Assembly: GCA_020632335.1 (NCBI GenBank)
Contig: JACKFV010000001.1
Span: 150,001 to 182,000 of the forward strand
DNA from: Candidatus Saccharimonadota bacterium
Lineage (GTDB): Bacteria; Patescibacteriota; Gracilibacteria; UBA4473
Direction: 5' to 3'
Length of the DNA: 32,000 nucleotides
Shown: in pieces, positions 5,529 to 29,855 of the stretch
Layout: every line of letters starts with the position of its first letter
How positions within the stretch are numbered: the stretch's first letter is position 1
Position numbers and translations under genes: made by a program
The notes under the pieces: generated by a model
Told to the model about the DNA's origin: nothing
Database searches by the model: none
The model's input: only the letters and a program-made list of their open reading frames with translations

Positions 5529-5637
5529 GGCTCCATAGTACCTCTCTCCTCCAACTGTGCAACCCAAAGCAAAAAAAACATCCGCAAACGCCTCCTGCAG
5601 GTTGTTTCTTTTAGCTAGCGGGCTATGCTGCACTGGA

Positions 5638-11012: not shown

Positions 11013-11102
11013 GTATTTTCTACTCTTTTTCTCAGCAGTATGCCCATGGTGTACTGCTTTTTTCTGCTGGTATTCTCCAGAAGATCGCTCTATACTGGTG
11101 GT

Positions 11103-13543: not shown

Positions 13544-14083
13544 ATGAATACTTTTATTACTCGTACATATAGACTCGGTTTACTCTCGCTCTGCCTGCTG
13601 AGTGGGAGCGTACTGGCGCAGGTATCTCCAGAGAATTCCTTTCCCGGGGAGGATAAGGGCACCCCCGGCTATAGCCTGGACGAGGGCTTGAGCCGCATCC
13701 TGCCCGAGGGGGCTAGTAACATCCGCCCGGCCTACCTGGTGGGCGCGGGTAAAGTAGCCCGGCCCATGCGCGCAGACGTCGCGGAGATCACTAACCAGAT
13801 ACAAAAGCTCACCAATGGTCTCACGCTGGGGGCTGCCACCATCGCGGTGGTGTTCATTGTCTTCTATGGGGTGCAGATAGCGCTGGGCAGTGGGGGTAAT
13901 GACACCGAAGCACAGAAGCACCTGCAGAAGCTCCTCCTGGCGGTGGCGGGGCTCGTGCTCATCATCTTCGCGTATATCATCGTGCGGACCATTGTGGCCA
14001 TCACCTACAGCGGCGAGGGCCTGCAGGGCGAGATAAACCAGGGGAACTTCAACGCGCCGCTACAAGACGCGGAGCTCCAGTAG
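13544..14083 (+). CDS. TrbC/VirB2-like pilin-topology protein (179 aa)
   Basis: Lies 6 nt after the previous stop. Signal peptide ends ...LLSGSVLA-Q. The hairpin is LGAATIAVVFIVFYGVQIAL - loop (GSGGNDTEAQKHLQK) - LLLAVAGLVLIIFAYIIV. Confidence 0.6.
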   Translation: MNTFITRTYRLGLLSLCLLSGSVLAQVSPENSFPGEDKGTPGYSLDEGLSRILPEGASNIRPAYLVGAGKVARPMRADVAEITNQIQKLTNGLTLGAATIAVVFIVFYGVQIALGSGGNDTEAQKHLQKLLLAVAGLVLIIFAYIIVRTIVAITYSGEGLQGEINQGNFNAPLQDAELQ

Positions 14084-14162: not shown

Positions 14163-16496
14163 ATGTATCGCCTCCTGCTCATCACGCTTCTGTTTCCCTC
14201 TCTGGCCGCGGCGCAGTCGGTGCTGGTGGAGTCCCCTGGGGTGGTGATTGCCCCACTGGAGATGCTCTGGGATGCGCCCCCCAGCAGTACAGCACTCCCC
14301 GTACGGCTGCAGTTCTCTACGCCTCTCAGCCTGGGGAGTAGTGTGCACTTCACGCTATCAGACAGCCACGGCGCCAGCATATTGGAGGAAACAACGCCCG
14401 TGCAAGACAGCGGCAATAACACCCTGGGGAGTGACGGCCGCCTGCCCAAGCAGTACGCGCTGCTCATCCCAGCGCCGGCCCTGAGTGGCGACACCTACAC
14501 CCTGCAGGCCACGCTGGAGGACCAAAATGGCCAGCCCCTGGCGCGAGGATCACGTCGCTTCACCATAGACGCGCCCGTACAGCTGCGCTATACCGAGAAC
14601 TTCACCCTGGTGGCCGCGGAGGCCAGCCCCACCGCACAGGTACAGTTCAGCTATCAGAATGACAGCGCTCCGCGCACCATCACACCCGTCATCAGCTGGT
14701 ATCCACGGGAGGGCGGACAGGCCGTGCTCAGCACTCCCCTGCCGGAAAAATCTGTAGCTGCTGATGGCGCTGTGGCTTATCAGGAGGCTATACCCACCCC
14801 CACGGTACCGGGGCACTACTACGCCACTCTGCGGGTAGAGGGCAGCGCTGGCAGTGCCATCACGGGGCAGATACGCGTACCGGTGACCATCCAGGGTGAA
14901 TTTGCGAGCATAGAGAACGTCGCTCACTCCCCCGAGCGCGCCTGGCAGCAGGGTGAGGAAGTGACGCTCACAGCGGATATATACACGCGAGATACCGGGC
15001 TGCCGGTCTTCCTCCGCACCAGCGTAGCCGAGTCCAGCGCCGGTCAGCAGACTCACACCGGGCAGATAGAGGACCGCGTGAGTAGAGGATTTGGCGTACG
15101 AATACCCCTGCAGCAGCGCTACACCGTGCAGGGCCAGCGTACCGAGCAGCTCCAGATGGAGACAGAGGTCATCCGTGACGGGGTGGTTATCGGCAGCCGC
15201 AGCTGGCGAACCCCCGTCTACCCCCAGCCAGAGAGCGCTGTGAACCCCACAGACCCCAGTACTCCAACGCCAGCAACCACCGCCTCCCCCGATAATACCC
15301 CCACGGAGGCCACGCCAGACACCCCAGAAGCCCCCAGTCTGCTCACCCAGCCGGGCTACTGGGCGATGGTGGGGTTGCTGCTGGTGGCTATAGGGCTTGG
15401 CATCTGGTACGCGCTGCGTAAAAAAAAAGTCCTGTCGCTCCTCATAACGATCCTCAGCGCTAGCCTCCTGGGGCAGAGCGCCCACGCGCAAATACCCGAC
15501 ATGACCCCCTACGCGTGGACATTTGAGACGCAGGTGAGCGAGACCTACCTCAACCCCAGCGATCCCTTTTTCGCGGAGGCGAGGCTGCAGGTGACTGCCC
15601 TCAATATGATGAACACCAGTCTGGAGTTCTTTGCTGACTATACCCTCATCGGTACGGTGGTGTACTTCACGGCGGCGCCGGGGGCTCCCCTCGTGCAGGA
15701 GTCCCTCCTCATAGACCCGATGGACGAGAACCGCTTTGCCATGAGCTTTAGCATCCCTCCCAGTACGGCCGGCATGCTGAGCGACGGCAGCTATACGCTC
15801 TATCTGCAGCTGGATATGGACGTACCCGGCACGGGCCTGCGGAGCTACGGGCTGACCATCAGCCCCTACCACCTGGATACCACCCCCCCCACGGTGCAGT
15901 ACCAGTACACCGACCAGGCTATGAAAGATGCCTATGGCCCCAGCGCCAGCACCCCCCAGGCCCCTCCGCTGCCATACACCACCGCCAACCCCATTGGCAT
16001 AGAGCGGCTCTGCACTGACCCCGACAGCAGTGGCGTGATAGGAAGCGGCTGCAGTAGCGTGGGAGGCGAGGAGACCTTCAGCCTGGAGACCGCCTATGCG
16101 CCGATCACCCTGAATGCCTGTGATAGGGTCAATAACTGCCTGTGTAGTGGGAGTGCCTGCTCCCCGAGTGCCGCGGTGTATACGCAGATGTACAGCACCG
16201 GTGGCGAGACGTTGGGGGATTTTAGCCTCTCTACCGAGGGGTATAGCGTGCAGGGCACTCCGGGAGAGACCATCCGCGCGAGTGAGAATATGCCCGTCTC
16301 TATCACTACGGTAGTGAGTGGCGCTGCTCCTGTTCTCCCCGCTGAGCCCTGCGCCCCTGCCGGCATGGTGGAGAACGGTGGCGGTTGCCAGCCGGCGCGT
16401 CTGCACTGCCTGGTGATAGACGAGTCTGGGCCGCTGCCCCTCATCACCCGGGGGACCTATGACCCGTATGACTACCAGGGGTGCACGGGGCTCTAG
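14163..16496 (+). CDS. Large surface protein (777 aa): signal peptide, ectodomain 1, Pro/Thr linker, central TM-RKKK-TM hairpin, Cys-rich ectodomain 2
   Basis: Signal peptide MYRLLLITLLFPSLAAA-Q. A P/T-rich linker (PTDPSTPTPATTASPDNTPTEATPDTPEAP) precedes WAMVGLLLVAIGLGIWYAL-RKKK-VLSLLITILSASLL. The C-terminal region is Cys-rich. The coding strand was chosen over the 618-aa antisense ORF. Confidence 0.7.
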   Translation: MYRLLLITLLFPSLAAAQSVLVESPGVVIAPLEMLWDAPPSSTALPVRLQFSTPLSLGSSVHFTLSDSHGASILEETTPVQDSGNNTLGSDGRLPKQYALLIPAPALSGDTYTLQATLEDQNGQPLARGSRRFTIDAPVQLRYTENFTLVAAEASPTAQVQFSYQNDSAPRTITPVISWYPREGGQAVLSTPLPEKSVAADGAVAYQEAIPTPTVPGHYYATLRVEGSAGSAITGQIRVPVTIQGEFASIENVAHSPERAWQQGEEVTLTADIYTRDTGLPVFLRTSVAESSAGQQTHTGQIEDRVSRGFGVRIPLQQRYTVQGQRTEQLQMETEVIRDGVVIGSRSWRTPVYPQPESAVNPTDPSTPTPATTASPDNTPTEATPDTPEAPSLLTQPGYWAMVGLLLVAIGLGIWYALRKKKVLSLLITILSASLLGQSAHAQIPDMTPYAWTFETQVSETYLNPSDPFFAEARLQVTALNMMNTSLEFFADYTLIGTVVYFTAAPGAPLVQESLLIDPMDENRFAMSFSIPPSTAGMLSDGSYTLYLQLDMDVPGTGLRSYGLTISPYHLDTTPPTVQYQYTDQAMKDAYGPSASTPQAPPLPYTTANPIGIERLCTDPDSSGVIGSGCSSVGGEETFSLETAYAPITLNACDRVNNCLCSGSACSPSAAVYTQMYSTGGETLGDFSLSTEGYSVQGTPGETIRASENMPVSITTVVSGAAPVLPAEPCAPAGMVENGGGCQPARLHCLVIDESGPLPLITRGTYDPYDYQGCTGL
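15420..15428. repeat. A9 homopolymer encoding the KKK of the central hairpin loop
   Basis: Read directly: cgt aaa aaa aaa gtc. Either +1 or -1 slippage reaches a stop within 6-12 codons after the tract. Confidence 0.95.
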
Positions 16497-17725
16497 GACG
16501 CCGGAGAATGCCCCAAATGGAGCATCTTCCGCCCCAGAAGCGCATTCACCACCAGGAGTACCCCTCCAATACTCAGCAGAGCAACGCCTACCGGGAGAAG
16601 CCCTAGGAGCTGCTTGCCGAGTGTGGTGTATAGCGCAAAGACACTGAAGATAATCGAGCGTGTCGTTGCTATGGAGGCCCCTTGTGTGTGCTCTACGAGG
16701 GTGTGGTTCCAGGCCGGCTGCCAGACTCCATCACACCCGCTAAAGAGAAGGAAGAGCCCTGCCACTACCCACCAATGCCCAAGCCAACACCCCGCTAGCA
16801 CGCACAATAGCCCCTGGAGGGTCGTCGCATACACCCATGCACGACTATACCCATAGCGTTCTCCGAAGCGGTAGACGTACTTATTAGCCAGCATGGTAGC
16901 TATGCTCGCCCCTGCCATGAGGACCCCCGCGTACCACACGGGCATACCCTGCGCCTCTAGCGTGGGGAGGAGAATAATGGGGAAATACGCTACATGGTTC
17001 CCCAGACTCCGGTAGAAGAGGAGCAAGCGGAGCTTGGCGTCACGCCCTATATGCCGGAGGGCAGTGCGGGCAGTCTGTACGTTGGCCTGCCACGCGGAGC
17101 GCAGCGTCGTGAAGTGCTGGCGCCCGGGGAGTTCCCGGAGCTGCAGCGTGAGCACCACCAACGCCAGCCCCACCACAGCATCGAACCACAGCAGTACCTG
17201 GTACCCTGTGTCGGGGAAGTTCTTTAAGAGCCATGATGCCAGAAGTGGTGTCAAGAAAGATGCCAGATTCTCGAGGAACATGAGATGTCCTATCGCCCGG
17301 CCAAAGGTCTGCTCTTCTCCCAGGACTCGGAGGTTTTCTTCGAGGAAAGCCTGCCCCGTGCCACTCCAGAAGCTATAGTACAGTGCCCCCAGCACCGCCG
17401 ACGCCACAAACCCCCACCACTGTGGAGAGAGAAGCAGCACCAACACGGCCATAAAATGCGCACTGACCGAAAACACCAGCGACCGCTTACGGCCAGTAGT
17501 GTCTGCGAGAACGGAGGTTGGTAGCTCGAGCAGCCACACACAGAGTGTCCCGATATTAGACAGGAGAATAATCTGGTAAAGGCTGAGCCCCATGTGAGTA
17601 TAGAACAGCTGCACCACCGGAGATAAAAACGCCAGCCCCGCTAAGAAATTTATCCACCGGTAGCGACGGAGGTTCCGTCTGGCCTGTAGAGGAGTGACTG
17701 GCAGCATGGGAGTGCAAGAGAGCAT
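16493..17725 (-). CDS. MFS transporter (about 410 aa)
   Basis: About 12 hydrophobic helices with MFS-like loop motifs (LADTTGRKRSL after TM2). ATG 17725 lies 1 nt after the upstream PBP stop. The stop overlaps the convergent gene's stop (CTAG at 16493-16496). Confidence 0.75.
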   Translation of the reverse strand: MLSCTPMLPVTPLQARRNLRRYRWINFLAGLAFLSPVVQLFYTHMGLSLYQIILLSNIGTLCVWLLELPTSVLADTTGRKRSLVFSVSAHFMAVLVLLLSPQWWGFVASAVLGALYYSFWSGTGQAFLEENLRVLGEEQTFGRAIGHLMFLENLASFLTPLLASWLLKNFPDTGYQVLLWFDAVVGLALVVLTLQLRELPGRQHFTTLRSAWQANVQTARTALRHIGRDAKLRLLLFYRSLGNHVAYFPIILLPTLEAQGMPVWYAGVLMAGASIATMLANKYVYRFGERYGYSRAWVYATTLQGLLCVLAGCWLGHWWVVAGLFLLFSGCDGVWQPAWNHTLVEHTQGASIATTRSIIFSVFALYTTLGKQLLGLLPVGVALLSIGGVLLVVNALLGRKMLHLGHSPAS

Positions 17726-17726
17726 A

Positions 17727-19925
17727 CTAGCGGTCTGGTGGGATGTCAAGATACTCCACGAGGAACTCTCCAATGCGTTTAAAGGTCACCGCAGCGGTCT
17801 CAGACCCCCACTGACTGGCCTTGGGGAAGTCCATCTTTACCAGCACCACAAAGGCCGGGTTCTCATACGGCGCATACCCCGCAAAGGTGGCTATCGTCGT
17901 CCCGATTTCCTCTTGCGCGCGGCCAGCCGCGTCGTAGGTCTGGCTGGTGCCCGTCTTCCCCATGACCGTATGGTGGGGCAGCTTGGCGGCGCTGGCATAG
18001 CCCTTGGCCACGCTCTCGGCCAGCATGGCTTTGATCATCTCATACGACTCCTTGCGGATGACCCGGTGGCGCAGCACGGGCGGGAAGTCCTCCTCCGTGC
18101 CATCGCTGTGGATAATGCGCTCCACAATGCGCGGCTCCACAAGGTAGCCCCCATTCGCCAGCGCGGCAAAGGCCGTCAGCATCTGTATGGGCGTCACGGC
18201 TATCCCCTGGCCAAACCCACGCGTAACGAGCTCTGAGGCCGTCCAGTCATGCCAGATCTCTAGTTTGCTGGGGTTCTCCCCCGGGAGCGCGATGTCGGTA
18301 TACTCGCCAAAGCCAAAGGATTTGAAGTACTCGTAGAGCACCTGGCGGCCCATCTTCTGCGTGACGAAGGCAATGCCGGTATTCAGCGAGCGGTTAATAA
18401 CGCTGATCATACTCGTGCGCCCGGCATAGACTCCGTCGGCATTCCGGATGGTGAATTCGTCCACCTCCACTGGCCCCGTGTCGTCATAGGTAGTGGTGGG
18501 GATGCCCTCATCAGCGTCCAGCGCAGAGGCCATTGTGACGGCCTTCATCACTGAACCCGGCTCGTAGATGTCGGCCACGGTACGGTTCCGGAAGACCTGC
18601 GGCCCCCAGGTATTGACATAGCGGTAGTAGAGCCCGTCGTCTGTGACGGTAGGGATAGCCTGGTTGAAGAGGGGATTCTCGCGGTCAGTATCCTCCTGCT
18701 CAGCTGTGATGGGATAGGTAAGGAAGGCATCACCGAAGCTATTGGGGTCAAAGAGCGGGGCATTCACCATGGCGAGGATATCGCCCGTCTGTGGGTCCAT
18801 GACGATGGCCTGCGCACTATCCGCGTCAAAGCGCTTGCGGTCCTCCTCCAGGAGCTTCTCCACCGTGCCCTGTATGACCCGGTCTATCGTGACCACAATG
18901 TCGCTACCGTCCTGCGCCTGTACCATGCCCGTGCCCTCCAAGCGGTTGCCCAGCAGGTGCTGCCCTGAGACATTCGTGGCGCCGAGGATCTGCCCGTCCT
19001 TCCCCCGGAGGATGGCGTCAAAGCGCTCTTCTATCCCGTAGCGGCCCGTCCCCTCCTTGTCGACGAAGCCCAGCACCTGCCCGGCCAGCTTCTTCTCGGG
19101 GTAGTAGCGCCAGTGCTCGTCTTGCAGGACAATCCCCCGCAGCAGCGTGCGGTACTCGGGGTCTTGCTTCAGCAGCTCTATGCGCTCGCTCACCTCGGGG
19201 ACTATCTGCCGCATCAGCACCTCATAGCGCTTACTGCGGCGGCGCATCATGTACTGCAGCTCGTCCTCCTCTACCCCAATGATGGGTGAGAGCTGCTGCG
19301 CCAGGCGCTCGGGGTTCTGGAGGTAGGTGGGGTCTACCACCACATTCCGCCCCTCTATGTACACCCCCTGCAGCCCCATCTGCTGGATGTCCGCTAGCCG
19401 AGACGGCGCCAGGTCGAGCGCCACCACGCTGCGCACCACCTCTACCTCGCGGAATTTCGCCTCCAGTTCACGCTGGTAGAGGGCAATGCGCTCGGCGGTG
19501 GGGCTATCCCAGTCATCGGGCGAGGTGGTGATGTTACAGCCCTCCGCGGCCTCACAGTGCGCGTGGATGAGCAGCGGCGCCAGCAACTTGGCCACCAGAG
19601 CTATGTCGCTGCGCTCTTGCTGGTCGAGTGGTTTGCGCGCGTCATAGGCGGGGTAGTTCAAGATCAGCGGGTCTATGGTGAGCATCTGCAGCGTGTTGTT
19701 GGTCGCCAGTGGGGTGAGCTCACTACTGGTGCGGCTCTTACGCGTGAGGATCTGCCCCCGCACCGCCGGGAGGACAAAGCGCCGCTCGTGCTGCGCGTCT
19801 GCTTTGGCCGCGTAGGCATCATGTTGCAGCACCTGCAGCTGCCACAGCCGCCCCACCATCAGGAGAAACAGCACTATAAACCCACCCATCAGCACCTGTA
19901 CCCGACGCGTAAAGGAGTACCACAT
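17727..19925 (-). CDS. Class B penicillin-binding protein (PBP2/FtsI-type transpeptidase, 732 aa)
   Basis: An N-terminal TM anchor (VLMGGFIVLFLLMVG) is followed by the transpeptidase motifs SVMK (SxxK), SLN (SxN) and KTGT (KTG) in order. I chose the start at ATG 19925 (MWYSFTRR). Confidence 0.9.
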   Translation of the reverse strand: MWYSFTRRVQVLMGGFIVLFLLMVGRLWQLQVLQHDAYAAKADAQHERRFVLPAVRGQILTRKSRTSSELTPLATNNTLQMLTIDPLILNYPAYDARKPLDQQERSDIALVAKLLAPLLIHAHCEAAEGCNITTSPDDWDSPTAERIALYQRELEAKFREVEVVRSVVALDLAPSRLADIQQMGLQGVYIEGRNVVVDPTYLQNPERLAQQLSPIIGVEEDELQYMMRRRSKRYEVLMRQIVPEVSERIELLKQDPEYRTLLRGIVLQDEHWRYYPEKKLAGQVLGFVDKEGTGRYGIEERFDAILRGKDGQILGATNVSGQHLLGNRLEGTGMVQAQDGSDIVVTIDRVIQGTVEKLLEEDRKRFDADSAQAIVMDPQTGDILAMVNAPLFDPNSFGDAFLTYPITAEQEDTDRENPLFNQAIPTVTDDGLYYRYVNTWGPQVFRNRTVADIYEPGSVMKAVTMASALDADEGIPTTTYDDTGPVEVDEFTIRNADGVYAGRTSMISVINRSLNTGIAFVTQKMGRQVLYEYFKSFGFGEYTDIALPGENPSKLEIWHDWTASELVTRGFGQGIAVTPIQMLTAFAALANGGYLVEPRIVERIIHSDGTEEDFPPVLRHRVIRKESYEMIKAMLAESVAKGYASAAKLPHHTVMGKTGTSQTYDAAGRAQEEIGTTIATFAGYAPYENPAFVVLVKMDFPKASQWGSETAAVTFKRIGEFLVEYLDIPPDR

Positions 19926-20003
19926 AGCCCCATGGTAGCGAAAAATCCCCGGTATGCTAGTGGATTCTATTGCTCTGAAGAGGCATATCACTAGCATAAG
20001 TGC

Positions 20004-20783
20004 ATGCGACGCCTTGGCGTATTTGACTCGGGTGTGGGCGGGCTGACCCTCCTGCGGGCGCTCCAGCAGGTCATGCCGGCCTGTCCCTTCCTCTACCTAG
20101 CTGACACCGCTGCCCTCCCCTATGGCGAGAAATCTCCGGCCGAAATCATCCACCGCACAGAACTCGTCACCCAGTACCTGGAGCACGCGGGCTGCAGTAT
20201 TATCGTCTACGCGTGTAATACCGCCTGTACAGTGGCCCACCAGACCGTACAAGCCCAGGGGGAGGTCCCGCACTTTGAGATCATCAGCCCGCTCAGGGAG
20301 CAGTTGCTGCTCAGCCGTGCGCGTCCGCTGGGGGTGCTGTGTACCCGGGCTACGGCGGAGAGTGGGGTCTTCCAGCAGCTGGGGGAGGAGCGTGGCAGCC
20401 CCTACCGAGTGCTCGCCTGCCCGGACCTCGTGCCGCTCATAGAGGGGAATGCCCCGCTAGAACAGCTGCAACGCGCGGTGAAGCGCTACTGCCGGGAGCT
20501 CTGCACCGGCTTCCTCCCGGAGATAGTGGTGCTGGGCTGCACGCATTATGAGGCGCTGCGGGGGCTCTTCCAGCAGTATCTGCCGCCCTGTACCCACATT
20601 ATCTCTCAGCCAGCGCTCCTGACCGTGGCCTTCCAGCGCTATGTACGGAACCACGAGGTGCTCATAGACACCATTGACACCACCCCCCGTACAGAGTACT
20701 GCTGTACTGCGCCGGTAGAGGTCCCCCAGGCCTTTACTCCCTATATCTCCCCCTCTACCCCTTGGCATGGCATCTCCCTCTAG
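20004..20783 (+). CDS. murI: Glutamate racemase (259 aa)
   Basis: VFDSGVGGLT is present, along with the two catalytic Cys motifs YACNTA and LGCTHY. Confidence 0.9.
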   Translation: MRRLGVFDSGVGGLTLLRALQQVMPACPFLYLADTAALPYGEKSPAEIIHRTELVTQYLEHAGCSIIVYACNTACTVAHQTVQAQGEVPHFEIISPLREQLLLSRARPLGVLCTRATAESGVFQQLGEERGSPYRVLACPDLVPLIEGNAPLEQLQRAVKRYCRELCTGFLPEIVVLGCTHYEALRGLFQQYLPPCTHIISQPALLTVAFQRYVRNHEVLIDTIDTTPRTEYCCTAPVEVPQAFTPYISPSTPWHGISL

Positions 20784-21975
20784 CCTCCCCGGTACTTACC
20801 TGGCTGTCCTCGGCCGCAACGCTGTGCTGAGCCGCACTGAGCTCAGCCGCTCTGCCCGGGAGCTCTGGACTGATGACGAAATAAGCCTGCTCACAGACCT
20901 GCAGGTGGAGAATCCTCGCTCCCTGCCCAAGGCCCCTGCGCAGCTCTTTCTCGACCGCCTGGGCGGCACCCAGCGCCTGGCCGTGCAGCTGCAGGTGGCT
21001 GCTACGGTGGAACAGAGCGTTAGCGTCATTGTGGACCACATAGCGCTGCACTACCCTGAGCTCTTTCCTCAGGGGGATCATAAATACCTCCTGGGCCTCT
21101 CCAGCTATGGCATGGGGAAATCTTTGAACAAAAAATATATGCAATCTATCACCCACGCCCTGGGGGAGCTGCCGCACAAGTGGGTCAATGAGGGCACGCA
21201 AAATATGACCTCGGGACGGTACTTCCACGAGAAAGTGGGACACAAGGGCGCCGAGTACATCGTGCACCAGACGACCGAGGGGATAGGGGTCTACCACACG
21301 GTGGCCAACCAGAACCTGCGCAATTACACCCTGCGTGACCGGCATAAAGAGGGCGACAGCACCATGGGTATGCTGCCGCCCAAGCTGGCGCAGATCCTCA
21401 TAAACCTCGCCCAGCCAGCCCCCGGCACCACCATCGTGGACCCTTTTTGTGGCTCGGGTACTGTGAATACCGAGGCGGCGATCATGGGCTACCCCACCCT
21501 GGGCAGTGACCAGAGCAAAGAGCACATCAAGATGGCGCAGCGCAACTGGAACTTCCTCAGTGAAAAATTTCGCTTCAGTACGGATTCTGGGCGCTTCACC
21601 ATCGCCGATGCCACGGAGCGGGACTACCCCCAGGGCGTCATGGTAACCGAGGGCTGGCTGGGGCAGAACTTCACCAGCAGACCCTCTAAAGACGCCGCAG
21701 CGCGAGAAGCCGAGCAAGTGGTGGCCCTCTGGCAGCGACTCTTCCTCACCCTCGAGAAGGCGCCTATAGACCGCATCGTCTGCTGCTGGCCCGTGTGGTA
21801 CTGCCGTGATGGCGCGGTAAAAGTCGACAAAAAAATACTTGCGCTCGCAAAGCGCTCTCACTACACTCCAGTGGCTTTTTGCGATGGGAGCCTGGGGCAA
21901 GTGTACGCGCGTGAGGGGGCCTATGTAGGGCGATGGGTGCAGGTACTGCAGAGAGCACAGGATCTTCCCGGGTAG
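20767..21975 (+). CDS. SAM-dependent methyltransferase, UPF0020/Trm11-like (putative RNA or DNA N-methylase, 402 aa)
   Basis: Motif I region reads LPPKLAQILINLAQPAPGTTIVDPFCGSGT...GSD. A degenerate motif IV-like VTEGWLGQ follows. The gene overlaps murI by 17 nt, and its stop lies 10 nt inside tRNA-Asn. Confidence 0.65.
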   Translation: MASPSSLPGTYLAVLGRNAVLSRTELSRSARELWTDDEISLLTDLQVENPRSLPKAPAQLFLDRLGGTQRLAVQLQVAATVEQSVSVIVDHIALHYPELFPQGDHKYLLGLSSYGMGKSLNKKYMQSITHALGELPHKWVNEGTQNMTSGRYFHEKVGHKGAEYIVHQTTEGIGVYHTVANQNLRNYTLRDRHKEGDSTMGMLPPKLAQILINLAQPAPGTTIVDPFCGSGTVNTEAAIMGYPTLGSDQSKEHIKMAQRNWNFLSEKFRFSTDSGRFTIADATERDYPQGVMVTEGWLGQNFTSRPSKDAAAREAEQVVALWQRLFLTLEKAPIDRIVCCWPVWYCRDGAVKVDKKILALAKRSHYTPVAFCDGSLGQVYAREGAYVGRWVQVLQRAQDLPG

Positions 21976-22040
21976 CTCAGCGGTAGAGCAATTGGCTGTT
22001 AACCAATTGGTCGTCGGTTCGAATCCGACCCCGGGAGCCA
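21966..22040 (+). tRNA. tRNA-Asn (anticodon GUU), CCA encoded
   Basis: Folds by hand into a cloverleaf: TCCCGGG/CCCGGGA acceptor, GCTC..GAGC D arm, ATTGG-CTGTTAA-CCAAT anticodon arm, GTCGG-TTCGAAT-CCGAC T arm, then G-CCA. Length is 75 nt. Confidence 0.9.
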
Positions 22041-22443
22041 GTAGAATTTATTGACGAAGAATCGCCCTTAGCAGCGGTCTTTTGTTCATGCGGATAATTC
22101 GTCAAAGCTATTATGTGAGAAGGCTCCCGCCATTCTATCGCTACGCCATCTCCGTATAAAAACACGGTTCAGACTCAGGGATAAGAGCCGTTCAATTCTT
22201 GGTTCAGACCTAGCGTCTTTCCTGGAAGGCAACTTCCGCCTCAAGGCGTCAGGTTCTGTGCGCTGCTAGTAGTAGGGAGCATCCCTAAAGGATTGCAGCG
22301 ACTTTAATTACTGTAAAATCCCTCTTAGCTTATCTTGCCCCATACTGTGGGAGTGACTCTCCTGCAACGCCATGGGTGGCATAATGGTGTGGGATTCAGA
22401 CTATTCCCCTTGCGGGATGGACAGCGGTCTGTATGCTCTTGGC

Positions 22444-24093
22444 ATGGAATCACGCGTCTGTAGCGTCTCAGGAGAATCCTTCACGGTGAGCGAGCTGGAG
22501 CGGGGTCTACGGCAGAAGTTTGGGTTGGAGGGGCTCCCCACTACGGCTCCGTGGGTGCGGTTGCGGCACTTGGGGACGTTCTGGCAGCACTTCCATCTGC
22601 ATAAGCGGGGCTGCGATAAGACGGGGCAGAGCATTATTTCGCCTTTTCGTGCAGACTGCCCGTATAAGGTGTATCACAAGGACGTCTGGCTGGAGCATGA
22701 CGACACCGTGGGCGCGGACGTAAATTTTGAGGAGCCAGTGTTTCAGCAGCTCTGGCAGTTTTTTCCGGAGAATCCGATACCAGATAGATTTGGGGCTAAT
22801 ACAGAAAACTGCGAATATACCGATAATATATGGAATGCAAAAAATTGTTATCTTTCCTTTAACGCTGACACCATAGAAAATTGTAGCTATAGTGTGCATC
22901 TCGCATTTAGTCGAGATATATATCATTGTTACTTTGTAGTAAATAGTGAGGTTGTATATGAGTCTGCCAATTGTATGCATGTTTATAATGTCGTGTATTG
23001 CGTACAGAGCCAGCAGTGCCATGACAGCGCCTTTCTCTATGACTGCCGGAACTGTAAAGACTGTATGTTCTGTTGTAACCTCCGGAACAAGCAGTACTGC
23101 TTTGGGAATCAGCAGCTGACGCAGGAGCAGTACGAGCAGAAGAAAGCGGAGTGGGATCTCTCCTCACGAGCGGTGTATGAACGCGCAAAAGGGTTTTTTG
23201 CAGAGATGATGCTGACTATGGCCTGGCATAGAGCGCTAGAACAGCAGCAGACAGAAGACGTACACGGCAACTATATAACGGAGTCTAAGAGTGTAGAGAA
23301 TGGATATTTTGTTGATAAAGTACACACTGCCGTTAACGTCTTGCGAGGGTATGACTTCCAGGATACCCTTGATTGTGTATCTCCAGGATTAAGTCAGCTG
23401 ACTTATCTGTGCTGTTTTGTGGGCTTACAGGCTTATGAAGTTCGCTTTTCTTTCTCGTGCTATGAATCGCATGACCTGGAGTACTGTGCCTTTTGCCAAA
23501 ACTGCGAGAACTGCTTTGGGTGCGTGGGGCTGCGGGGGAAGCAGTACTATATTTTCAATAAACCGTATAGCGAGGAGGCCTACCACGCGCTGAAGGCTCA
23601 GCTGGTGGAGTACATGAAGAGCACGGGCGAATACGGACAATTCTTCCCCGGGTACTTCAGCCCCGCGCCGTATGACGAGACGATCAGCGGGTATTACTGG
23701 CCACTGGATAAGTCGCAGCAGGAGCAGCTGGGGTTCCGCTATGCCGCGCCGGTAGAGAAGCACAATGCCGGCTACCGGAGCGTAGAGGAAATCCCCGATA
23801 CTCCCGAGGGCTGGACAGACAGCATGTACCAGCACGTCTACTGGGACGAGGTAGCTGGCAAGCCTTTCCAGATAACCAAGCAAGACGTCGCCTTTGCCAA
23901 GAAAATGGGCGTCCCACTGCCAGACAGCCACTATATGCGACGCATACAAGAGAACCTCCGCTGGATGCCCTTTGACGGTAAGTTGCGCACCACCACCTGC
24001 GCCCAGAGCGGCAAAACGATAGAGACCAGCTGGCCGGCAGCGTATGACGGGCGCATCTTGAGCGAGGAAGCCTACAACCAGATGGTGGTGTAG
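22444..24093 (+). CDS. Cysteine-ladder protein, paralog A (549 aa), uncharacterised family
   Basis: Homologous over its full length to paralogs B and C. The start at ATG 22444 (MESRVCSVSGESF) was chosen by alignment with MEVRHCSISGKAF. It has two Cys-rich modules, each ending C(K/E)(D/N)C(M/F)(F/G)C..LR.KQY(C/Y).., and a C-terminal FAKKMGVPLP motif. Confidence 0.75.
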   Translation: MESRVCSVSGESFTVSELERGLRQKFGLEGLPTTAPWVRLRHLGTFWQHFHLHKRGCDKTGQSIISPFRADCPYKVYHKDVWLEHDDTVGADVNFEEPVFQQLWQFFPENPIPDRFGANTENCEYTDNIWNAKNCYLSFNADTIENCSYSVHLAFSRDIYHCYFVVNSEVVYESANCMHVYNVVYCVQSQQCHDSAFLYDCRNCKDCMFCCNLRNKQYCFGNQQLTQEQYEQKKAEWDLSSRAVYERAKGFFAEMMLTMAWHRALEQQQTEDVHGNYITESKSVENGYFVDKVHTAVNVLRGYDFQDTLDCVSPGLSQLTYLCCFVGLQAYEVRFSFSCYESHDLEYCAFCQNCENCFGCVGLRGKQYYIFNKPYSEEAYHALKAQLVEYMKSTGEYGQFFPGYFSPAPYDETISGYYWPLDKSQQEQLGFRYAAPVEKHNAGYRSVEEIPDTPEGWTDSMYQHVYWDEVAGKPFQITKQDVAFAKKMGVPLPDSHYMRRIQENLRWMPFDGKLRTTTCAQSGKTIETSWPAAYDGRILSEEAYNQMVV

Positions 24094-24680
24094 TGCTCTG
24101 GGACTGCACCAGGAGCGGTCTGTGGGGGATTACCTCCTAGAATACGAGGGCCTGGTAGCACGTCTCACAGAGGATTTGCTCGGGTCTGTCGGGGGCGTAA
24201 GTGGTGGAGATAGGGGCCCCACACTGGCCGCACTCCCGGTCATACAGCCGCCGAGGATTCCGCAGTGCCATGCGTTCTTTATGCCGTTGGTCCGGGTGTT
24301 TGCGCGGGATGGGCAGCCCCATTTTTTTGTAGAACTGGAGTTCTGCCGGCTGTATGCGGTAGTTTTTTCCGGTGACCTCGCAGGCCAGTATCTCCTTCGT
24401 GATGCTCTCAGGCACGTCCGCTATGGCCTCGGGGATCACGTAGGTCTGCGGCTGGTAGTCTTTTTTGTCCTCCTCGCGCCAGGTGTAGCCCCGTGCCAGA
24501 GCCTCTTCCCGCGTGAGCGGATAGTACTCCTGCGCGATGGTTTCGTTGTAGGCAAAGGGGCTCATCCCGGGCGGGAAGAACTCGCCCCACTCGCCGGTGC
24601 GCTTCATGTGCGCTATTATCTGGTCTCGTAGCGTGTAGTATTCTTCTTTGCTGTACTGCTTATTCAGGATGCAGTACTGT
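24061..24680. repeat. Outer inverted repeat, left arm (about 620 bp)
   Basis: Its reverse complement matches 29200-29819 with no indels (p+q=53880). Positions 24133-24631 are identical to 29249-29747 in my base-by-base comparison. The arm covers the 3-prime third of paralog B, the intergenic spacer and the last 33 nt of paralog A. Confidence 0.9.
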
Positions 24681-25801
24681 GCTTTATTGAGGCCATAACA
24701 ACCGAATGCATGTTCGGTCCCTCTGAGACAAAATTGGGAATACCATACATTTGAAGAGCCATCGTACAGTTGTGCACAGAACGCAGTATCAGCAGTATTG
24801 AGTCCTATACATACTCCTTCATAGCAGTTTTGTATTCCCATACCGCCGATATTAATATCCATACAATTGTAGTTTTCTCCGTCTCCTGCAAAGAGGTCAG
24901 CGCAGTAGGTAAGATTGTCTGCTCTGTGACAGTTATAGCAGTGTGAAAGATCCCGAGAATAAGAAAGCATATCCCCCGTGCAGTTTTCACATTGTATTTG
25001 TCGCGTACACTTATAAGAGAGATTTTGCTTGAACGTAGTGAAGAATTGTGCTAGCTGAGGGAGCGTATGAGTAGCTAATAGAACTTTCAATTTCTGTTCA
25101 TATACTTCTTTTGTGAGTTGTTCGTTATTAAAACAATATTTCTTATTTCGTAGGTTACTACAGCCAAAGCAATCACGGCAACCTATACAATCTGTGCAAA
25201 AATAACAGGTATTACAATTGTCAGAGTGTAGGGTATACACACATGTATGGCACTGTGTACAGTCAATACATTCATAACACAACTCACAGTTTCTCGTATC
25301 TTGCACATCTACAGAATCAAAACAATGGAAGACATTATTCCCATAGAGACACTTTTCATTGTAATCAGCACAGGTAATGAGATAACAATCTTTCATATAC
25401 CCGCAGTTATTGCAGTAGTCACAGTTTTCTAGTGTGTCTGCCACCACTTCTCTCATAATGTGGGGGACACGTTTCTCGAGCGACGCAAATTGCTCAAAAA
25501 ATGGCACGTTAAAGTCATATGCTTGACAATAATCTCGTGCGTCCCACGCATCACTATACCAGTATTTCGGTTCATAAAGTGTGTAGCCCTTATCTTCTGG
25601 GAACATACTCAGTCCTCGTTGTTTCGTTATGTTACATTCTGCCCAATAGAGCTTTCTCTCATTTCTATACGTCAGTCTTCTTCGGGCCCGCTCCTCCGGG
25701 CACAGGGTGGGCAGTGGCACGCCCATTTTCTCGTAGAACTGTATGTCTTGGTCTGTGATAGTAAATGCTTTGCCGGAGATGGAGCAGTGGCGTACTTCCA
25801 T
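24137..25801 (-). CDS. Cysteine-ladder protein, paralog B (554 aa), uncharacterised family
   Basis: ATG ORF with about 43 Cys by my count. An N-terminal CSISGKAFTITDQDIQFYEKMGVPLPTLCPEER motif and a related C-terminal CEVTGKNYRIQPAELQFYKKMGLPIP...RECGQCG...CETC motif flank two Cys modules. It lies 36 nt downstream of the ATPase on the same strand. Confidence 0.8.
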   Translation of the reverse strand: MEVRHCSISGKAFTITDQDIQFYEKMGVPLPTLCPEERARRRLTYRNERKLYWAECNITKQRGLSMFPEDKGYTLYEPKYWYSDAWDARDYCQAYDFNVPFFEQFASLEKRVPHIMREVVADTLENCDYCNNCGYMKDCYLITCADYNEKCLYGNNVFHCFDSVDVQDTRNCELCYECIDCTQCHTCVYTLHSDNCNTCYFCTDCIGCRDCFGCSNLRNKKYCFNNEQLTKEVYEQKLKVLLATHTLPQLAQFFTTFKQNLSYKCTRQIQCENCTGDMLSYSRDLSHCYNCHRADNLTYCADLFAGDGENYNCMDINIGGMGIQNCYEGVCIGLNTADTAFCAQLYDGSSNVWYSQFCLRGTEHAFGCYGLNKAQYCILNKQYSKEEYYTLRDQIIAHMKRTGEWGEFFPPGMSPFAYNETIAQEYYPLTREEALARGYTWREEDKKDYQPQTYVIPEAIADVPESITKEILACEVTGKNYRIQPAELQFYKKMGLPIPRKHPDQRHKERMALRNPRRLYDRECGQCGAPISTTYAPDRPEQILCETCYQALVF

Positions 25802-25802
25802 A
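25686..25802. repeat. Inner inverted repeat, left arm (117 bp)
   Basis: Its reverse complement matches 28081-28197 with one mismatch (G versus A in gcgtRccact). It starts 1 nt upstream of the paralog B ATG and covers codons 1-39. Confidence 0.9.
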
Positions 25803-25837
25803 CTCTGAATGTACAGGACTTACGAGAAGACACAACC

Positions 25838-28027
25838 CTAAATAATCGGCTCGTGGAAGTTCTCGTCCTGCTGCTCTAGGCTGCCGTCTTCCCAGGCTTT
25901 TATCTGTGCTTCGGCGTCGCGTTTGGGCATTGCGTAGGTCTTGCGGCTGTGCTCTCGTATCTCTTTGGCGCAGTTCTTCTCGGGGTAATGTATGGTGAGC
26001 GTCCGCCCACTGAAGGCCTCTTTGAGGTCGCCTTCTATGCTCATTTTGGTGTAGAAGTCTCGTACCCCCAGGTTGATAATGTCCCGCGCGGTGAACTTGG
26101 GCTGCAGCTCCTTCTCGAGAATCTGCGCGTCGTCGCCCCCTACCCGGAAGGTAATCATAGACCCCACATTCCCAAACACCGTCTTGAGGATCTGCGGGGT
26201 GAGCTGCCCCAGGAACTGGTGCGCTATGGTCAGGCACAGCCGGTACTTACGCGCTTCGCTCATGATCTCATCGAAGGTATCAGTGGCAAAGTTCTGGAAC
26301 TCATCCACATAGAAGTAAAAGTCTCTCCGGTTTTCTTCCAGGGTGTCGGCGCGTTCCATGGCGGCTTGGTATATTTTGGTCACGATAATGGCGCCCAGCA
26401 GCTGCGCATTTTCTTCCCCGAGGATCCCCTTACTGACCTTCACCAGCAGTATCTTCTGCCCGTCCATTACCTCCCGTATGTTGAATTTATTATGCGGCTG
26501 GCCCACAATATTCCGTATCATATTCGAGGCCAAGAACTGCCCTACTTTATTGAGGAGTGGTGTGATGGCCTGGTTATCGAATTTCTCACTCCAGCCGGCA
26601 AATTCATTCACCCAGAAGCTCTTGACCGTGTCGTCTTGTATATTCCGCACGATGTCCTGGCGGTAGTTTTTATCCGTCAGCATGCGCATGATGCTCAGCA
26701 CAGTGGTGCCGTCACTGTCCAGCAGCGCCAGCGTTGTCATCCGCAGCACGTGCTCCAGGCGGTCATTCCACCCCGCGCCAAAGAGTTTTTCGAATATCTC
26801 GAGGAAGCCGGTGGTGACCCGTATCTTCAGCTCTGGCTTGACATTCTCTATCGGGTTGAACGCTATCGGGAAGGCAATATCTGTGGGGTCTATCAGCACT
26901 ACGTCTTTCTGGCGGTGCTCGGGCACCATCCGGAGGACATTATCTACCAAGTCCCCATGGGGGTCCAGCACGCCTACGCCTTTGCCCGCCTGCAGGTCTG
27001 CCTGTATCAGCAGCTCAATGAGCTTACTCTTCCCGCTCCCGCTCTTCCCCACCACGTACAGGTGTCGCCGACGGTCACTACGCTTGATACCAAATGGCAC
27101 GCTACTCCCGTGGAAGTTCGTCTTCCCGAAGAAACTAATGTCACTGTCGTGGGTGTCTGTAGGGAGGCCTGGGGGGGCTTCTCCTTTGCGGCTGATGACC
27201 TGGATAATATTGCTCACCTCTCGTTCATTGGGCAGGTGGTAGAGGGTGGCTATCTCATCAGACGATAGCAGCAGACTGGGGTGGCTGCGCTTAGCAAAAG
27301 CCTGCACTGCCGCTGCTCCTTTATACTTTTGTGCTGGTTTTATGCTATTGAGGTCAAGCGTGTTGTAGTTCTTCAGTGTTGAGAGCATAGCGCTCAGTCG
27401 GGTAGCCGCTCCCCCCATAGTAGGGCCAAAGGCCGCCACCCGCAGCGACACCCTATACAGCCGACTCTGGAGCTTACTCGTGATGCTCTGGCTGAAGAGA
27501 TTTCGGTCTTGCTTCTTGAACCAGTACTTTATCCGGAACTTATGCCGGAAGGTATCCAGCATGCGCACAATACCCATCTTCCAGTGGAAGAACCCCGAGT
27601 CTGGCACCGGCGTACAGACCAGCTGGAACCACACGCCCTCCTCTGGTTTGGTCTTGCTCATCACACTCAGCAGCCCCGCCAGGCTATCCCCGTCAAAGTT
27701 CTGGTGGGTGTTGATGGGGTAAATGGCATTCCGCGTGAGGGTTACATCGGCTCCGGCTATGGGCATCCCCTGTGGCAAGAGTGTGGTATAGTCAGGTATC
27801 TGGAGGATTTCCGCTGCGGGAAACACCGCGTAGAACTGCCCCATGAGTACCTGGCACGTGCCGGGGTCCGCCGTGAAGACAAACCCCAGATTACCACTCA
27901 TCGTCACGATTTCCAGGCTGAATGTCTGGCCCACAAGGGTCTCGTGCAACTGGTTAAGGATCTCTGCAAAGGCAACCTCCTTCTTCTGATTATTGGGGGG
28001 CACTTGTATGAGGTAGGTCTCGCGCAT
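25838..28027 (-). CDS. Soluble VirD4/TraD/TraG-superfamily (type IV coupling-protein-like) P-loop ATPase with a ~320-aa N-terminal domain of unknown function (729 aa)
   Basis: Walker A is VVGKSGSGKS (about residues 325-334), Walker B is FYFYVDEFQNF, followed by LTIAHQFLGQL, as in TraG/TraD-type NTPases. No TM helix is present. The start at ATG 28027 (MRETYLIQV) was chosen because the upstream 68 codons of the long ORF are just the antisense of the paralog C 5-prime repeat. Confidence 0.7.
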   Translation of the reverse strand: MRETYLIQVPPNNQKKEVAFAEILNQLHETLVGQTFSLEIVTMSGNLGFVFTADPGTCQVLMGQFYAVFPAAEILQIPDYTTLLPQGMPIAGADVTLTRNAIYPINTHQNFDGDSLAGLLSVMSKTKPEEGVWFQLVCTPVPDSGFFHWKMGIVRMLDTFRHKFRIKYWFKKQDRNLFSQSITSKLQSRLYRVSLRVAAFGPTMGGAATRLSAMLSTLKNYNTLDLNSIKPAQKYKGAAAVQAFAKRSHPSLLLSSDEIATLYHLPNEREVSNIIQVISRKGEAPPGLPTDTHDSDISFFGKTNFHGSSVPFGIKRSDRRRHLYVVGKSGSGKSKLIELLIQADLQAGKGVGVLDPHGDLVDNVLRMVPEHRQKDVVLIDPTDIAFPIAFNPIENVKPELKIRVTTGFLEIFEKLFGAGWNDRLEHVLRMTTLALLDSDGTTVLSIMRMLTDKNYRQDIVRNIQDDTVKSFWVNEFAGWSEKFDNQAITPLLNKVGQFLASNMIRNIVGQPHNKFNIREVMDGQKILLVKVSKGILGEENAQLLGAIIVTKIYQAAMERADTLEENRRDFYFYVDEFQNFATDTFDEIMSEARKYRLCLTIAHQFLGQLTPQILKTVFGNVGSMITFRVGGDDAQILEKELQPKFTARDIINLGVRDFYTKMSIEGDLKEAFSGRTLTIHYPEKNCAKEIREHSRKTYAMPKRDAEAQIKAWEDGSLEQQDENFHEPII

Positions 28028-28080
28028 CACTATGAGTATAGAGTTGCTTGCATCATGTGGCAATGCCAGTATGGTCGAAA

Positions 28081-28197
28081 TATGGAAGTACGCCACTGCT
28101 CCATCTCCGGCAAAGCATTTACTATCACAGACCAAGACATACAGTTCTACGAGAAAATGGGCGTACCACTGCCCACCCTGTGCCCGGAGGAGCGGGC
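28081..28197. repeat. Inner inverted repeat, right arm (117 bp)
   Basis: Partner of 25686-25802 (p+q=53883). It starts 1 nt upstream of the paralog C ATG at 28082. Confidence 0.9.
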
Positions 28198-29743
28198 TAT
28201 GAGGAGGATGGTCTGGAGGAATGAACGACACTTATATAAGAGGAAATGCGATGCCACCGGTAAAGATATTCTGTCTGTAATGGCTCCGACTTACCCCGGG
28301 CAAGTGTACACCCCAGATGCCTGGTGGAGCGATGCGTTTGATGCTCGTGAATATGGTCGTGATTATGACAACACACGCCCTTTCTTAGAGCAATTTGCAG
28401 CCCTTAATGTAGCAGTCCCAGCAGTAGGGAGAGCCGTAGTGGCCACTACTCTGGAGAACTCCGAATACTGTAATGGCTGTGATCGTCTTAAGGACTGCTA
28501 TCTTCTCTTTGAAGCGAATAATGATGAGAAATGTCTCTATGGGAGAGGTGTCTACTACAGCTTTGATACCCTTGACAGTCTACACATAAATCACTGTGAG
28601 GCCTGCTACCAAGTGGTGGACTGTCAGCAGTGTAGCTTCAGCACCTACCTCATGGATGCCACCCAGTGCACGGACTGCCACTACTGCGCCGACTGCATAG
28701 GCTGCTCCCACTGCTTTGGGTGTGTGAATCTCCGCCAAAAGCGCTACTGTTTTAATAACCAACAGTTGACTCCAGAACAGTACACAGAAAAAGTAGCCGA
28801 GTTACGAGCACGCTACACTCCTCATGAACTACACGATTTTTTCTTGGCATTCAGAAAAACCCAACCCGCGCGAGCAAACCACTCTCTCCGTGCAGAAAAT
28901 TCTACCGGAGATTTTCTCTATAACACCCAGAACTGCACCAACTGCTATGACTGCCACGCAAGCCAAGACTGCAGCTATTGCACCAATCTGGCTGAAAAGG
29001 GAACGAATCATACTAACTACGATATTTCCCTCTTTGGGAATGGCACCACCAACTCCTATGAGTGCAATGCTGTAGGAGTTGCTGTAGATAGCCTCTTGTT
29101 CTGTAGTCATTGTATTATCAATAATTATAATCTGGCATACTGTAGCTGGTGCGTCAACGGCACCCACGACTGCTTTGGCTGCGTGGGGCTGAAAAAGCAA
29201 CAGTACTGCATCCTGAATAAGCAGTACAGCAAAGAGGAATACTTCACACTACGAGACCAGATAATAGCGCACATGAAGCGCACCGGCGAGTGGGGCGAGT
29301 TCTTCCCGCCCGGGATGAGCCCCTTTGCCTACAACGAAACCATCGCGCAGGAGTACTATCCGCTCACGCGGGAAGAGGCTCTGGCACGGGGCTACACCTG
29401 GCGCGAGGAGGACAAAAAAGACTACCAGCCGCAGACCTACGTGATCCCCGAGGCCATAGCGGACGTGCCTGAGAGCATCACGAAGGAGATACTGGCCTGC
29501 GAGGTCACCGGAAAAAACTACCGCATACAGCCGGCAGAACTCCAGTTCTACAAAAAAATGGGGCTGCCCATCCCGCGCAAACACCCGGACCAACGGCATA
29601 AAGAACGCATGGCACTGCGGAATCCTCGGCGGCTGTATGACCGGGAGTGCGGCCAGTGTGGGGCCCCTATCTCCACCACTTACGCCCCCGACAGACCCGA
29701 GCAAATCCTCTGTGAGACGTGCTACCAGGCCCTCGTATTCTAG
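28082..29743 (+). CDS. Cysteine-ladder protein, paralog C (553 aa), uncharacterised family
   Basis: The start at ATG 28082 (MEVRHCSISGKAF...) was chosen by identity with paralog B. The first 39 and last ~180 residues are essentially identical to B, and the central ~335 residues are only loosely similar. It is divergent from the ATPase, with a 54-nt spacer. Confidence 0.8.
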   Translation: MEVRHCSISGKAFTITDQDIQFYEKMGVPLPTLCPEERAMRRMVWRNERHLYKRKCDATGKDILSVMAPTYPGQVYTPDAWWSDAFDAREYGRDYDNTRPFLEQFAALNVAVPAVGRAVVATTLENSEYCNGCDRLKDCYLLFEANNDEKCLYGRGVYYSFDTLDSLHINHCEACYQVVDCQQCSFSTYLMDATQCTDCHYCADCIGCSHCFGCVNLRQKRYCFNNQQLTPEQYTEKVAELRARYTPHELHDFFLAFRKTQPARANHSLRAENSTGDFLYNTQNCTNCYDCHASQDCSYCTNLAEKGTNHTNYDISLFGNGTTNSYECNAVGVAVDSLLFCSHCIINNYNLAYCSWCVNGTHDCFGCVGLKKQQYCILNKQYSKEEYFTLRDQIIAHMKRTGEWGEFFPPGMSPFAYNETIAQEYYPLTREEALARGYTWREEDKKDYQPQTYVIPEAIADVPESITKEILACEVTGKNYRIQPAELQFYKKMGLPIPRKHPDQRHKERMALRNPRRLYDRECGQCGAPISTTYAPDRPEQILCETCYQALVF

Positions 29744-29819
29744 GAGGCAATCCTCCGCAGGCTGCTCCTGTAGCAGCTCCAGAGCACTACACCACCATCT
29801 GGTTGTAGGCCTCCTCGCT
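29200..29819. repeat. Outer inverted repeat, right arm (about 620 bp)
   Basis: Partner of 24061-24680. There are three mismatches at 29235, 29244 and 29248, then a 499-bp perfect block, then scattered mismatches from 29748 to 29819. Confidence 0.9.
29787..29819 (-). pseudogene. 33-nt relic of the 3-prime end of a paralog-A-like gene
   Basis: The minus strand reads AGC GAG GAG GCC TAC AAC CAG ATG GTG GTG TAG (SEEAYNQMVV-stop). This is the same peptide and stop as the end of paralog A at 24061-24093. Similarity ends abruptly at 29819. Confidence 0.7.
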
Positions 29820-29855
29820 ATAGACCCTCGATAAAATTCCCGCTATACTAAAGGG

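Follow-up and report, generated by a model that had tools for sequence, protein, structure and literature searches.

Two paralogous genes, here called B and C, face away from a shared center on either side of an ATPase gene in a 32,000-nucleotide (nt) stretch of DNA (hereafter the window; positions 150,001 to 182,000 of contig JACKFV010000001.1, assembly GCA_020632335.1) from Candidatus Saccharimonadota bacterium, which GTDB places in the Gracilibacteria (UBA4473). The first and last parts of the two genes are almost the same DNA, and their middles are not. The locus therefore raises the question of how two genes came to be nearly identical at both ends and deeply diverged in between, and whether the 5.8-kb quasi-palindrome that they form (24061 to 29819) has a function of its own. 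An earlier note, made from the sequence alone, had read this pattern as recombination that homogenizes the ends of two opposed paralogs while their middles diversify, in a geometry that would also support DNA inversion of the hsdS or shufflon kind.

The results presented below indicate that the ends of B and C were probably homogenized by RecA-type homologous recombination between the paralogs and that the palindrome is a by-product of this process. The homogenization probably happened more than once.

Nested inverted repeats at the ends of one gene pair

Repeat searching of a 10-kb region returned two long inverted pairs. The outer pair (I1; the outer arms in Table 1) spans 639 nt that are 97% complementary, with 21 mismatches arranged in strata, and the inner pair (I2; 25646 to 25835 and 28048 to 28237) spans 190 nt at 82%. 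The runner-up inverted pair measured just 44 nt at 75%, so I1 and I2 are not due to chance. Base-by-base comparison of 24061 to 24680 with 29200 to 29819 gave 13 mismatches in 620 positions and no indels, in agreement with the earlier description, and the 499-nt block that had been read as perfect is an exact reverse complement of its counterpart. The inner pair (117 nt) was also as described, and its sole mismatch (25718/28165) is synonymous in a valine codon. Measured in 30-nt windows, nucleotide identity steps from 1.0 in the arms down to 0.30 to 0.70 between them.

The symmetry center that both pairs had been said to share, near 26940, is real; its coincidence is trivial, because both pairs are the two ends of one gene pair with 554 and 553 codons, which makes the repeats concentric. 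At the 5' end of the genes, the likeness of the arms ends at the start codon (20 of 38 upstream positions differ). At the 3' end, it extends 81 nt past the stop codon, a stretch in which 12 of the 81 positions do not match.

Each cysteine-rich protein contains an internal duplication; in B, residues 2 to 57 and 471 to 526 are 41% identical (E = 4e-17) and share the motif C..SG..F.I...D..FY.KMG.P.P..CP..R..R...RN.R.LY. The inner and outer arms therefore each encode one copy of this module, and the same duplication accounts for the weak matches of inner to outer arms that the repeat search also gave (I4, I5, D1, and D4). Antisense open reading frames (ORFs) were also seen within the outer arms (24122 to 24631, plus strand, 169 amino acids [aa]; 29249 to 29704, minus strand, 151 aa), with stop codons located exactly where the perfect block has its inner end. 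These ORFs are probably a by-product of high GC content.

Homogenized ends and diverged cores

The B and C proteins are 100% identical at the start, 42% identical in the core (about 40% had been estimated by eye), and 99% identical in the tail. The closest relatives outside the locus were 67 to 69% identical in the tail, and in the core they were 42% identical for B and 48% for C (protein P0001). The C core was nearer to P0001 than to the B core in 496 of 500 bootstraps. The suggestion that the middles diversified after a duplication was not borne out, as the cores of B and C are as distant from each other (42%) as they are from homologues in other genomes (42 to 48%).

Synonymous sites follow the same mosaic. 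Codon identity at identical conserved residues of B and C was 0.95, 0.45, and 0.98 in the start, core, and tail, respectively, compared with medians of 0.47, 0.50, and 0.49 for 115 within-locus paralog pairs from 84 loci of the family and 0.38, 0.42, and 0.42 between genomes. Among these 115 pairs, the longest exact run was that of B and C, with 492 aligned nt versus a median of 16, and the pair is the single outlier of the family. A perfect run of 499 nt was obtained in 0 of 200,000 permutations. Because synonymous sites are included, the homogenization cannot be attributed to constraint on the protein. The third-position and codon-identity data thus support that part of the earlier reading in which homologous recombination or gene conversion homogenized the ends of the opposed paralogs.

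Divergence was not uniform within the tail arm. Differences at third-codon positions in the perfect block numbered 0 of 164, compared with 9 of 43 positions in the adjoining intergenic part (Fisher test, P = 3.5e-7). By stratum, mismatches numbered 0 of 495 in the coding block, 3 of 49 at the inner edge, 9 of 43 in the intergenic spacer, and 3 of 38 in the tail of gene A, a third paralog that converges on B (tests of strata against third-codon positions, Fisher P = 3.5e-7 to 1e-6). Divergence within a single arm thus takes the values 0%, 6%, and about 15 to 21%, and the tail arm contains at least two age strata. These differences exclude a single event followed by uniform decay and place a rehomogenization of the coding part at a later time.

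Base composition of arms and cores

GC content at third codon positions (GC3) was 0.72 in the start arm and 0.77 in the tail arm of B, within the range of neighboring genes (0.64 to 0.80), and was lower in the cores of B (0.37), C (0.53), and A (0.55). Maximum-likelihood change points in GC3, located from B alone, fell after codons 39 and 374, which are the limits of the arms (log-likelihood ratio, 41.6, versus a maximum of 11.6 in 40 permutations). Across the family, the difference between tail and core GC3 was -0.01 ± 0.08, and the three paralogs of the window had the three largest values among 118 family genes (+0.39, +0.24, and +0.23). The low-GC3 block of B is contiguous and takes in the central conserved motif, which is GC3-high in A and C. 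The B core is therefore a contiguous, compositionally foreign block, a second observation at odds with middles that diversified in place. B, or its core, most likely came from a lower-GC relative and now carries ends of the resident type.

In all three paralogs, third positions are AT rich in variable regions and resident-like in conserved ones, in a patchy manner in A and C, and for A this pattern is not accounted for by B or C acting as conversion donors. It may have arisen through repeated import or because GC-biased recombination is lacking in the variable parts. A tRNA-Asn gene (21966 to 22040) lies directly upstream of gene A. A genomic island at this tRNA gene was rejected as an explanation of the locus, as GC3 is resident-like both in the ATPase gene and in the arms. 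Elsewhere, a low-GC patch (about 0.47) at 7.0 to 7.8 kb contains short ORFs only, with no Pfam matches.

Homology-limited gene conversion as the probable origin

In the explanation favored here, B and C would be long-diverged members of a multicopy family that lie opposed on either side of the gene for their partner ATPase. Nonreciprocal conversion would repeatedly have copied the end modules, namely, codons 1 to 39 on one side and, on the other, the final ~181 codons together with part of the 3' flank, in tracts that stop where the partners are too different to pair. The putative tract limits are the start codon, a point after codon 39 in the motif PTLCP..R..RR, and a point just before YCILNKQY, the most conserved motif of the family. 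The ~1.0-kb cores, at about 50% nucleotide identity, would be unable to pair and would stay distinct, so that no diversifying selection is needed. B or its core would have arrived from the lower-GC relative and then gained resident ends, and the 5.8-kb quasi-palindrome would be a geometric by-product of these conversion events. The sequence itself shows the repeat, the mosaic identity, the homogenization at synonymous sites, the age strata, and the joints in composition; from these we infer by which pathway recombination acted, which way DNA was transferred, and that the B core is of foreign origin.

Several points weigh against this explanation. A four-point analysis did not resolve whether the cores of B and C are sisters, at a divergence that is saturated. 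Exact look-ups returned no sister genome in which the arms could be seen to covary from strain to strain, as in the classical proof of concerted evolution. A search for the donor of the B core among 5.8e9 proteins returned nothing above 42% identity, and the amino acid composition of the core is only mildly shifted toward that of low GC content. The direction of transfer is ambiguous: the remnant of the A tail beside C would point either to copying from left to right or to a lost A-like gene, and GC3 would make B the recipient. Two histories could have left this remnant: a block may have been copied from the A-B side in the original event, or the palindrome may once have been larger (A-B-ATPase-C-A'). 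Finally, short-read polishing of the contig, if it was done, may have exaggerated the perfect match between the arms.

Alternative explanations

Identity of the ends could also reflect youth rather than maintenance. A resident gene with its 81-nt 3' flank might have been duplicated in inverted orientation across the ATPase gene, after which one or both cores were replaced by imported family DNA through crossovers in conserved motifs. The continuation of the 3' arm for 81 nt past the stop codon, with its functionless copy of the last 12 codons and stop of A, is what such a duplication would leave, and the B core does look like an insert, contiguous and low in GC3, whose joints coincide with the limits of the arms. 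The flank of the arm is nevertheless about 15% diverged next to 164 synonymous positions without a change, so a later homogenization would be needed anyway, and the exact start of the 5' arm at the start codon, natural for homology-limited conversion, would be a coincidence as a duplication end point. No donor of a core was found, and it would be mechanistically difficult for a low-GC donor to cross over with a high-GC recipient within motifs whose conservation is confined to the protein. Such a duplication with cassette replacement, in which the ends are identical simply because they are young, is considered unlikely. An origin of the pattern in assembly or polishing, in which the copies are less similar than they appear or one copy, or the assignment of a core to its locus, stems from misresolved repeats in the metagenome, is the least probable of the alternatives. 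The source is a 630,865-nt contig of a metagenome-assembled genome (MAG), the 499-nt perfect repeat exceeds typical short reads, polishing with multimapping reads can erase small differences between copies, and the phase of the cores relative to the flanks comes from the assembly alone. Against an artifact, there are 12 mismatches among the 81 positions of the outer flanks, and such ends must therefore belong to two distinct loci. For a low-GC organism to have contributed to a chimera, k-mers would have to be shared at both joints. A similar mosaic is also present in an assembly unrelated to this one (described below), and independent contigs are 100% identical to the neighboring 6.4 kb. The unique ATPase center and cores argue in the same direction, and a fold-back chimera of assembly or amplification was rejected for this reason (2.2-kb unique ATPase center, unique cores, and diverged outer flanks).

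A functional switch would give the palindrome a role that conversion does not. Inversion at the 117-nt inner arms, mediated by RecA or by a distant invertase, would flip the promoter-bearing ATPase gene and cotranscribe it with core B or core C. The geometry permits inversion with both reading frames intact, the sole promoter-like site near the center lies within the invertible segment, B begins 36 nt after the ATPase stop codon, and the orientation of paralogs relative to the ATPase gene varies among related loci. Some hsdS invertons are without a local invertase, and "spontaneous" inversions are known (PMC7672463). Of the features that define invertons, a segment flanked by inverted repeats is present. 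A tyrosine or serine recombinase within ~10 kb was not found among the ORFs scanned in the window (about 30, searched against Pfam and NCBIfam), which upholds the earlier statement that the window has no recombinase; the only recombination-related match was an ATPase of the RecF/SMC_N type (5557 to 6783). New coding sequences, or an exchange between expressed and silent copies, were not found either: each of the two genes is a complete ORF with a start codon of its own and one variable segment, and whichever repeat pair inverted, proteins B and C would result again, with no gain in coding diversity. The analogy with hsdS loci and shufflons is not supported on this point, nor by the arms, which are long coding modules rather than short sites of recombination; that they are whole conserved protein modules is what conversion predicts. 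No such repeats occur in any of 83 other loci, so they are not a design feature of the system. At most, an inversion might determine which core lies downstream of the ATPase gene and the promoter-like site. Judged from the repeats themselves, homologous inversion between the 117-nt or 620-nt repeats probably occurs at some low frequency; that it serves as a switch is improbable, if marginally less so than an artifact. If such a switch did operate, also through the 620-nt outer arms, the end modules would be kept as recombination substrates and for common docking to the ATPase, and imported low-GC cores would give a Peribacteria cell with a reduced genome new specificities for a family-wide system of an ATPase and a paralog array. 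A diversity-generating retroelement was rejected, as no reverse transcriptase was found among the scanned ORFs, the cores have no further repeats, and the cores differ at all base types (about 50% identical) and not specifically at adenines.

Related loci and sister sequences

A mosaic comparable to that of B and C was found in a Peribacteria locus with a GC content of 36% (L012), in which two tandem A-type paralogs share 631 nt at 95% identity in direct orientation (146 to 776 and 1794 to 2424), including a perfect block of ~360 nt. The shared segment takes in the ~190 codons at the 3' end, the spacer, and the beginning of the following gene, and its inner boundary falls in the motif block CFGCxGL...YHIFNKPY, which is equivalent to YCILNKQY in the window. 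From its sequence, this locus is read as a second, independent case and the tandem counterpart of the mosaic in the window. As the joints of both share a motif block, the joint between the middle and C-terminal domains is a recurrent recombination boundary, as would be expected of exchanges that begin or stop in the most highly conserved stretch of nucleotides.

Inverted repeats of at least 60 nt and at least 90% identity around the ATPase gene were found in 0 of the 83 other loci (L001 to L083). Exact DNA scans with the inner-arm sequence gave 0 matches in genome_contigs (63-mer) and 0 in metagenome_contigs (27-mer). In exact-protein look-ups, B, C, the ATPase, A (with two starts), and the downstream MgtC-like protein were not on record, and only MurI was found. 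Two Logan contigs that carry MurI (L084 and L085, from SRR12358675 and SRR12358676) are 100% identical to positions 14784 to 21215 of the window, and both end at 21215, inside a methyltransferase gene and before the B/C locus. This common end suggests a graph branch or strain variation. The population from which the window comes is present in both runs.

Genes of the locus and their protein family

The features of the locus are listed in Table 1. The ATPase gene sits between the inner arms, upstream of B on the same strand and divergent from C, and its start codon is supported by 80 related loci, whose matches run from residues 1 to 3 through residue 729. The candidate promoter lies in the 54-nt spacer directly 5' of this start codon, inside the segment that an inversion at the inner arms would flip. 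In the AlphaFold 2 model of B, residues 1 to 130 and 380 to 554 are very well defined, and the cysteine-rich middle is less so. The B and C proteins are apparently cytoplasmic, as judged by eye from the absence of a signal peptide or transmembrane segment. The last 38 nt of gene A fall inside the left outer arm. Its true start is likely the ATG at 22444, 24 codons after the start of the annotated ORF, where the N terminus of the family aligns. Several cysteines that are nearly invariant in the family (at positions equivalent to C34, C474, C527, C545, and C548) have been lost from the A protein, and its reading frame is intact.

Table 1. Coordinates of genes, repeat arms, and other features in the window (pLDDT, predicted local distance difference test; pTM, predicted template modeling score)
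Feature	Coordinates	Strand	Description
Gene A	22372-24093	+	Third, most divergent paralog; convergent with B
Gene B	24137-25801	-	554 aa, full length; AlphaFold 2 pLDDT 87.4, pTM 0.90
ATPase gene	25838-28027	-	729 aa; DUF87/HerA central domain, TrwB/TraD-type (VirD4-like) matches
Gene C	28082-29743	+	553 aa, full-length paralog of B
B core	24681-25685	-	Codons 40 to 374; contiguous low-GC3 block (0.37)
C core	28198-29199	+	GC3 0.53, patchy; GC3 of central conserved motif resident-like
Left outer arm (I1)	24056-24694		3' ~181 codons of B, 43-nt A-B spacer, last 12 codons and stop of A
Right outer arm (I1)	29186-29824		3' ~181 codons of C and 81 nt of 3' flank
Perfect block, left copy	24133-24631		499 nt; runs 4 nt past the stop codon of B
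Perfect block, right copy	29249-29747		499 nt
Left inner arm	25686-25802		Codons 1 to 39 of B and 1 nt 5' of the ATG
Right inner arm	28081-28197		Codons 1 to 39 of C and 1 nt 5' of the ATG
Candidate promoter	28035-28063	-	Sigma-70-like match TTGCCA-17-TATACT, 10/12; consensus match only
Remnant of A tail	29787-29824	-	12 codons and stop, functionless, no gene attached; 3/38 mismatches to 24056-24093

In the public annotation of the source MAG, B is represented by its last 156 codons only (H6771_00820, MCB9809503.1) and C by its last 186 codons only (H6771_00835, MCB9809506.1). These fragments are essentially the arms with resident GC3, and the gene caller probably rejected the low-GC3 cores. 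Because only the 3' modules (156 and 186 aa) are called, the full-length proteins of 554 and 553 aa are absent from the protein collection that was searched.

Homologues of B were numerous: 7,991 of the 8,000 candidates scored were significant, with a best identity of 50%, and nearly all were unnamed proteins of Gracilibacteria, Peribacteria, Peregrinibacteria, and other Patescibacteria. Related genomes contain arrays of one to six or more cysteine-rich paralogs of ~550 aa beside an orthologous ATPase gene (DUF8128 plus DUF87/T4SS-DNA_transf). Most often the paralogs lie upstream of the ATPase gene on its own strand; in some cases they are oppositely oriented. A divergent regulator of the TrmB family precedes the array in L001 and in L002/L003. 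The cysteine-rich family had no match above threshold in Pfam, NCBIfam, or PADLOC. For the zinc-ribbon families PF13451 (zf-trcl) and PF23477 (zf_Tbcl_2), only C gave a match, to PF23477 and below the cutoff (16.4 versus 27 bits), and some homologues carry precomputed matches. A sequence search of the PDB returned no relative of the family profile or of the ATPase, and a Foldseek comparison of the model with the PDB returned insignificant matches only, to left-handed beta-helices (weakly similar to the middle region). Literature searches for DUF8128 and for the cysteine-rich family found nothing relevant. Association of the family with phages was rejected, as IMG/VR gave one marginal match.

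Two genes resembling type IV secretion system pilin genes (12983 to 13537 and 13544 to 14083) lie between large ORFs without family matches (11040 to 12983 and 14163 to 16496). A functional link between these genes and the VirD4/HerA-like ATPase gene, ~10 kb away, is possible.

Comparison with known systems

The case is probably one of concerted evolution like that of babA and babB, and adds to a phenomenon of a known kind an example from a poorly known lineage and an uncharacterized family. For babA, babB, and babC of Helicobacter pylori, PMC4552749, which cites Pride and Blaser (2002), describes intragenomic conversion in a short 5' and a long 3' region that yields chimeric genes. Conversion in a short 5' and a long 3' part of the gene is the likeness to B and C. 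The bab genes differ in being dispersed loci that encode surface adhesins, with a known selective pressure and a CT-repeat phase switch, whereas B and C are adjoining, are inverted around an ATPase gene, and include one core that is compositionally foreign.

Conversion between the inversely oriented tufA and tufB genes of Salmonella, which has been characterized by experiment, is recA dependent and nonreciprocal. Its tracts are contiguous and break off where homology runs out, and mismatch repair curtails exchange between diverged DNA (PMC5485169). Inverted copies and homology-limited conversion tracts are thus common to the tuf genes (Salmonella and Escherichia coli) and to B and C. The tuf genes are homogenized over their full length at a distance of 762 kb; B and C are homogenized at their ends only, because their cores are ~50% diverged.

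Opposed paralogs, conserved repeats that flank variable segments, and frames that are preserved on inversion are features shared with the hsdS invertons of Streptococcus pneumoniae (cod/ivr), Bacteroides fragilis, and Mycoplasma pulmonis and with shufflons (PMC7672463 and PMC4948785). Those systems have a tyrosine or serine invertase, usually within ~10 kb, and none was found here among the scanned ORFs. Their repeats lie between two variable domains, and an expressed gene recombines with silent partial copies to yield new specificities (PMC7672463); at this locus there are two complete genes with one variable segment each, and inversion yields no new protein. Ampliconic palindromes of primate Y chromosomes also have inverted arms kept nearly identical by intrachromosomal conversion around a unique spacer (PMC4772468, abstract). 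Apart from scale and organism, they differ in that whole arms are homogenized; in the window, the arm pairs are interrupted by a nonhomologous core.

Significance

The B/C locus provides a clean case of partial concerted evolution in a bacterium of the candidate phyla radiation, in which intragenomic recombination is, to our knowledge, little documented. Homology-limited conversion tracts, age strata, and a compositional chimera are displayed by a single gene pair. The locus also draws attention to a very large family of ~550-aa cysteine-rich proteins encoded beside a DUF8128/HerA/VirD4-like ATPase in Gracilibacteria, Peribacteria, and Peregrinibacteria.

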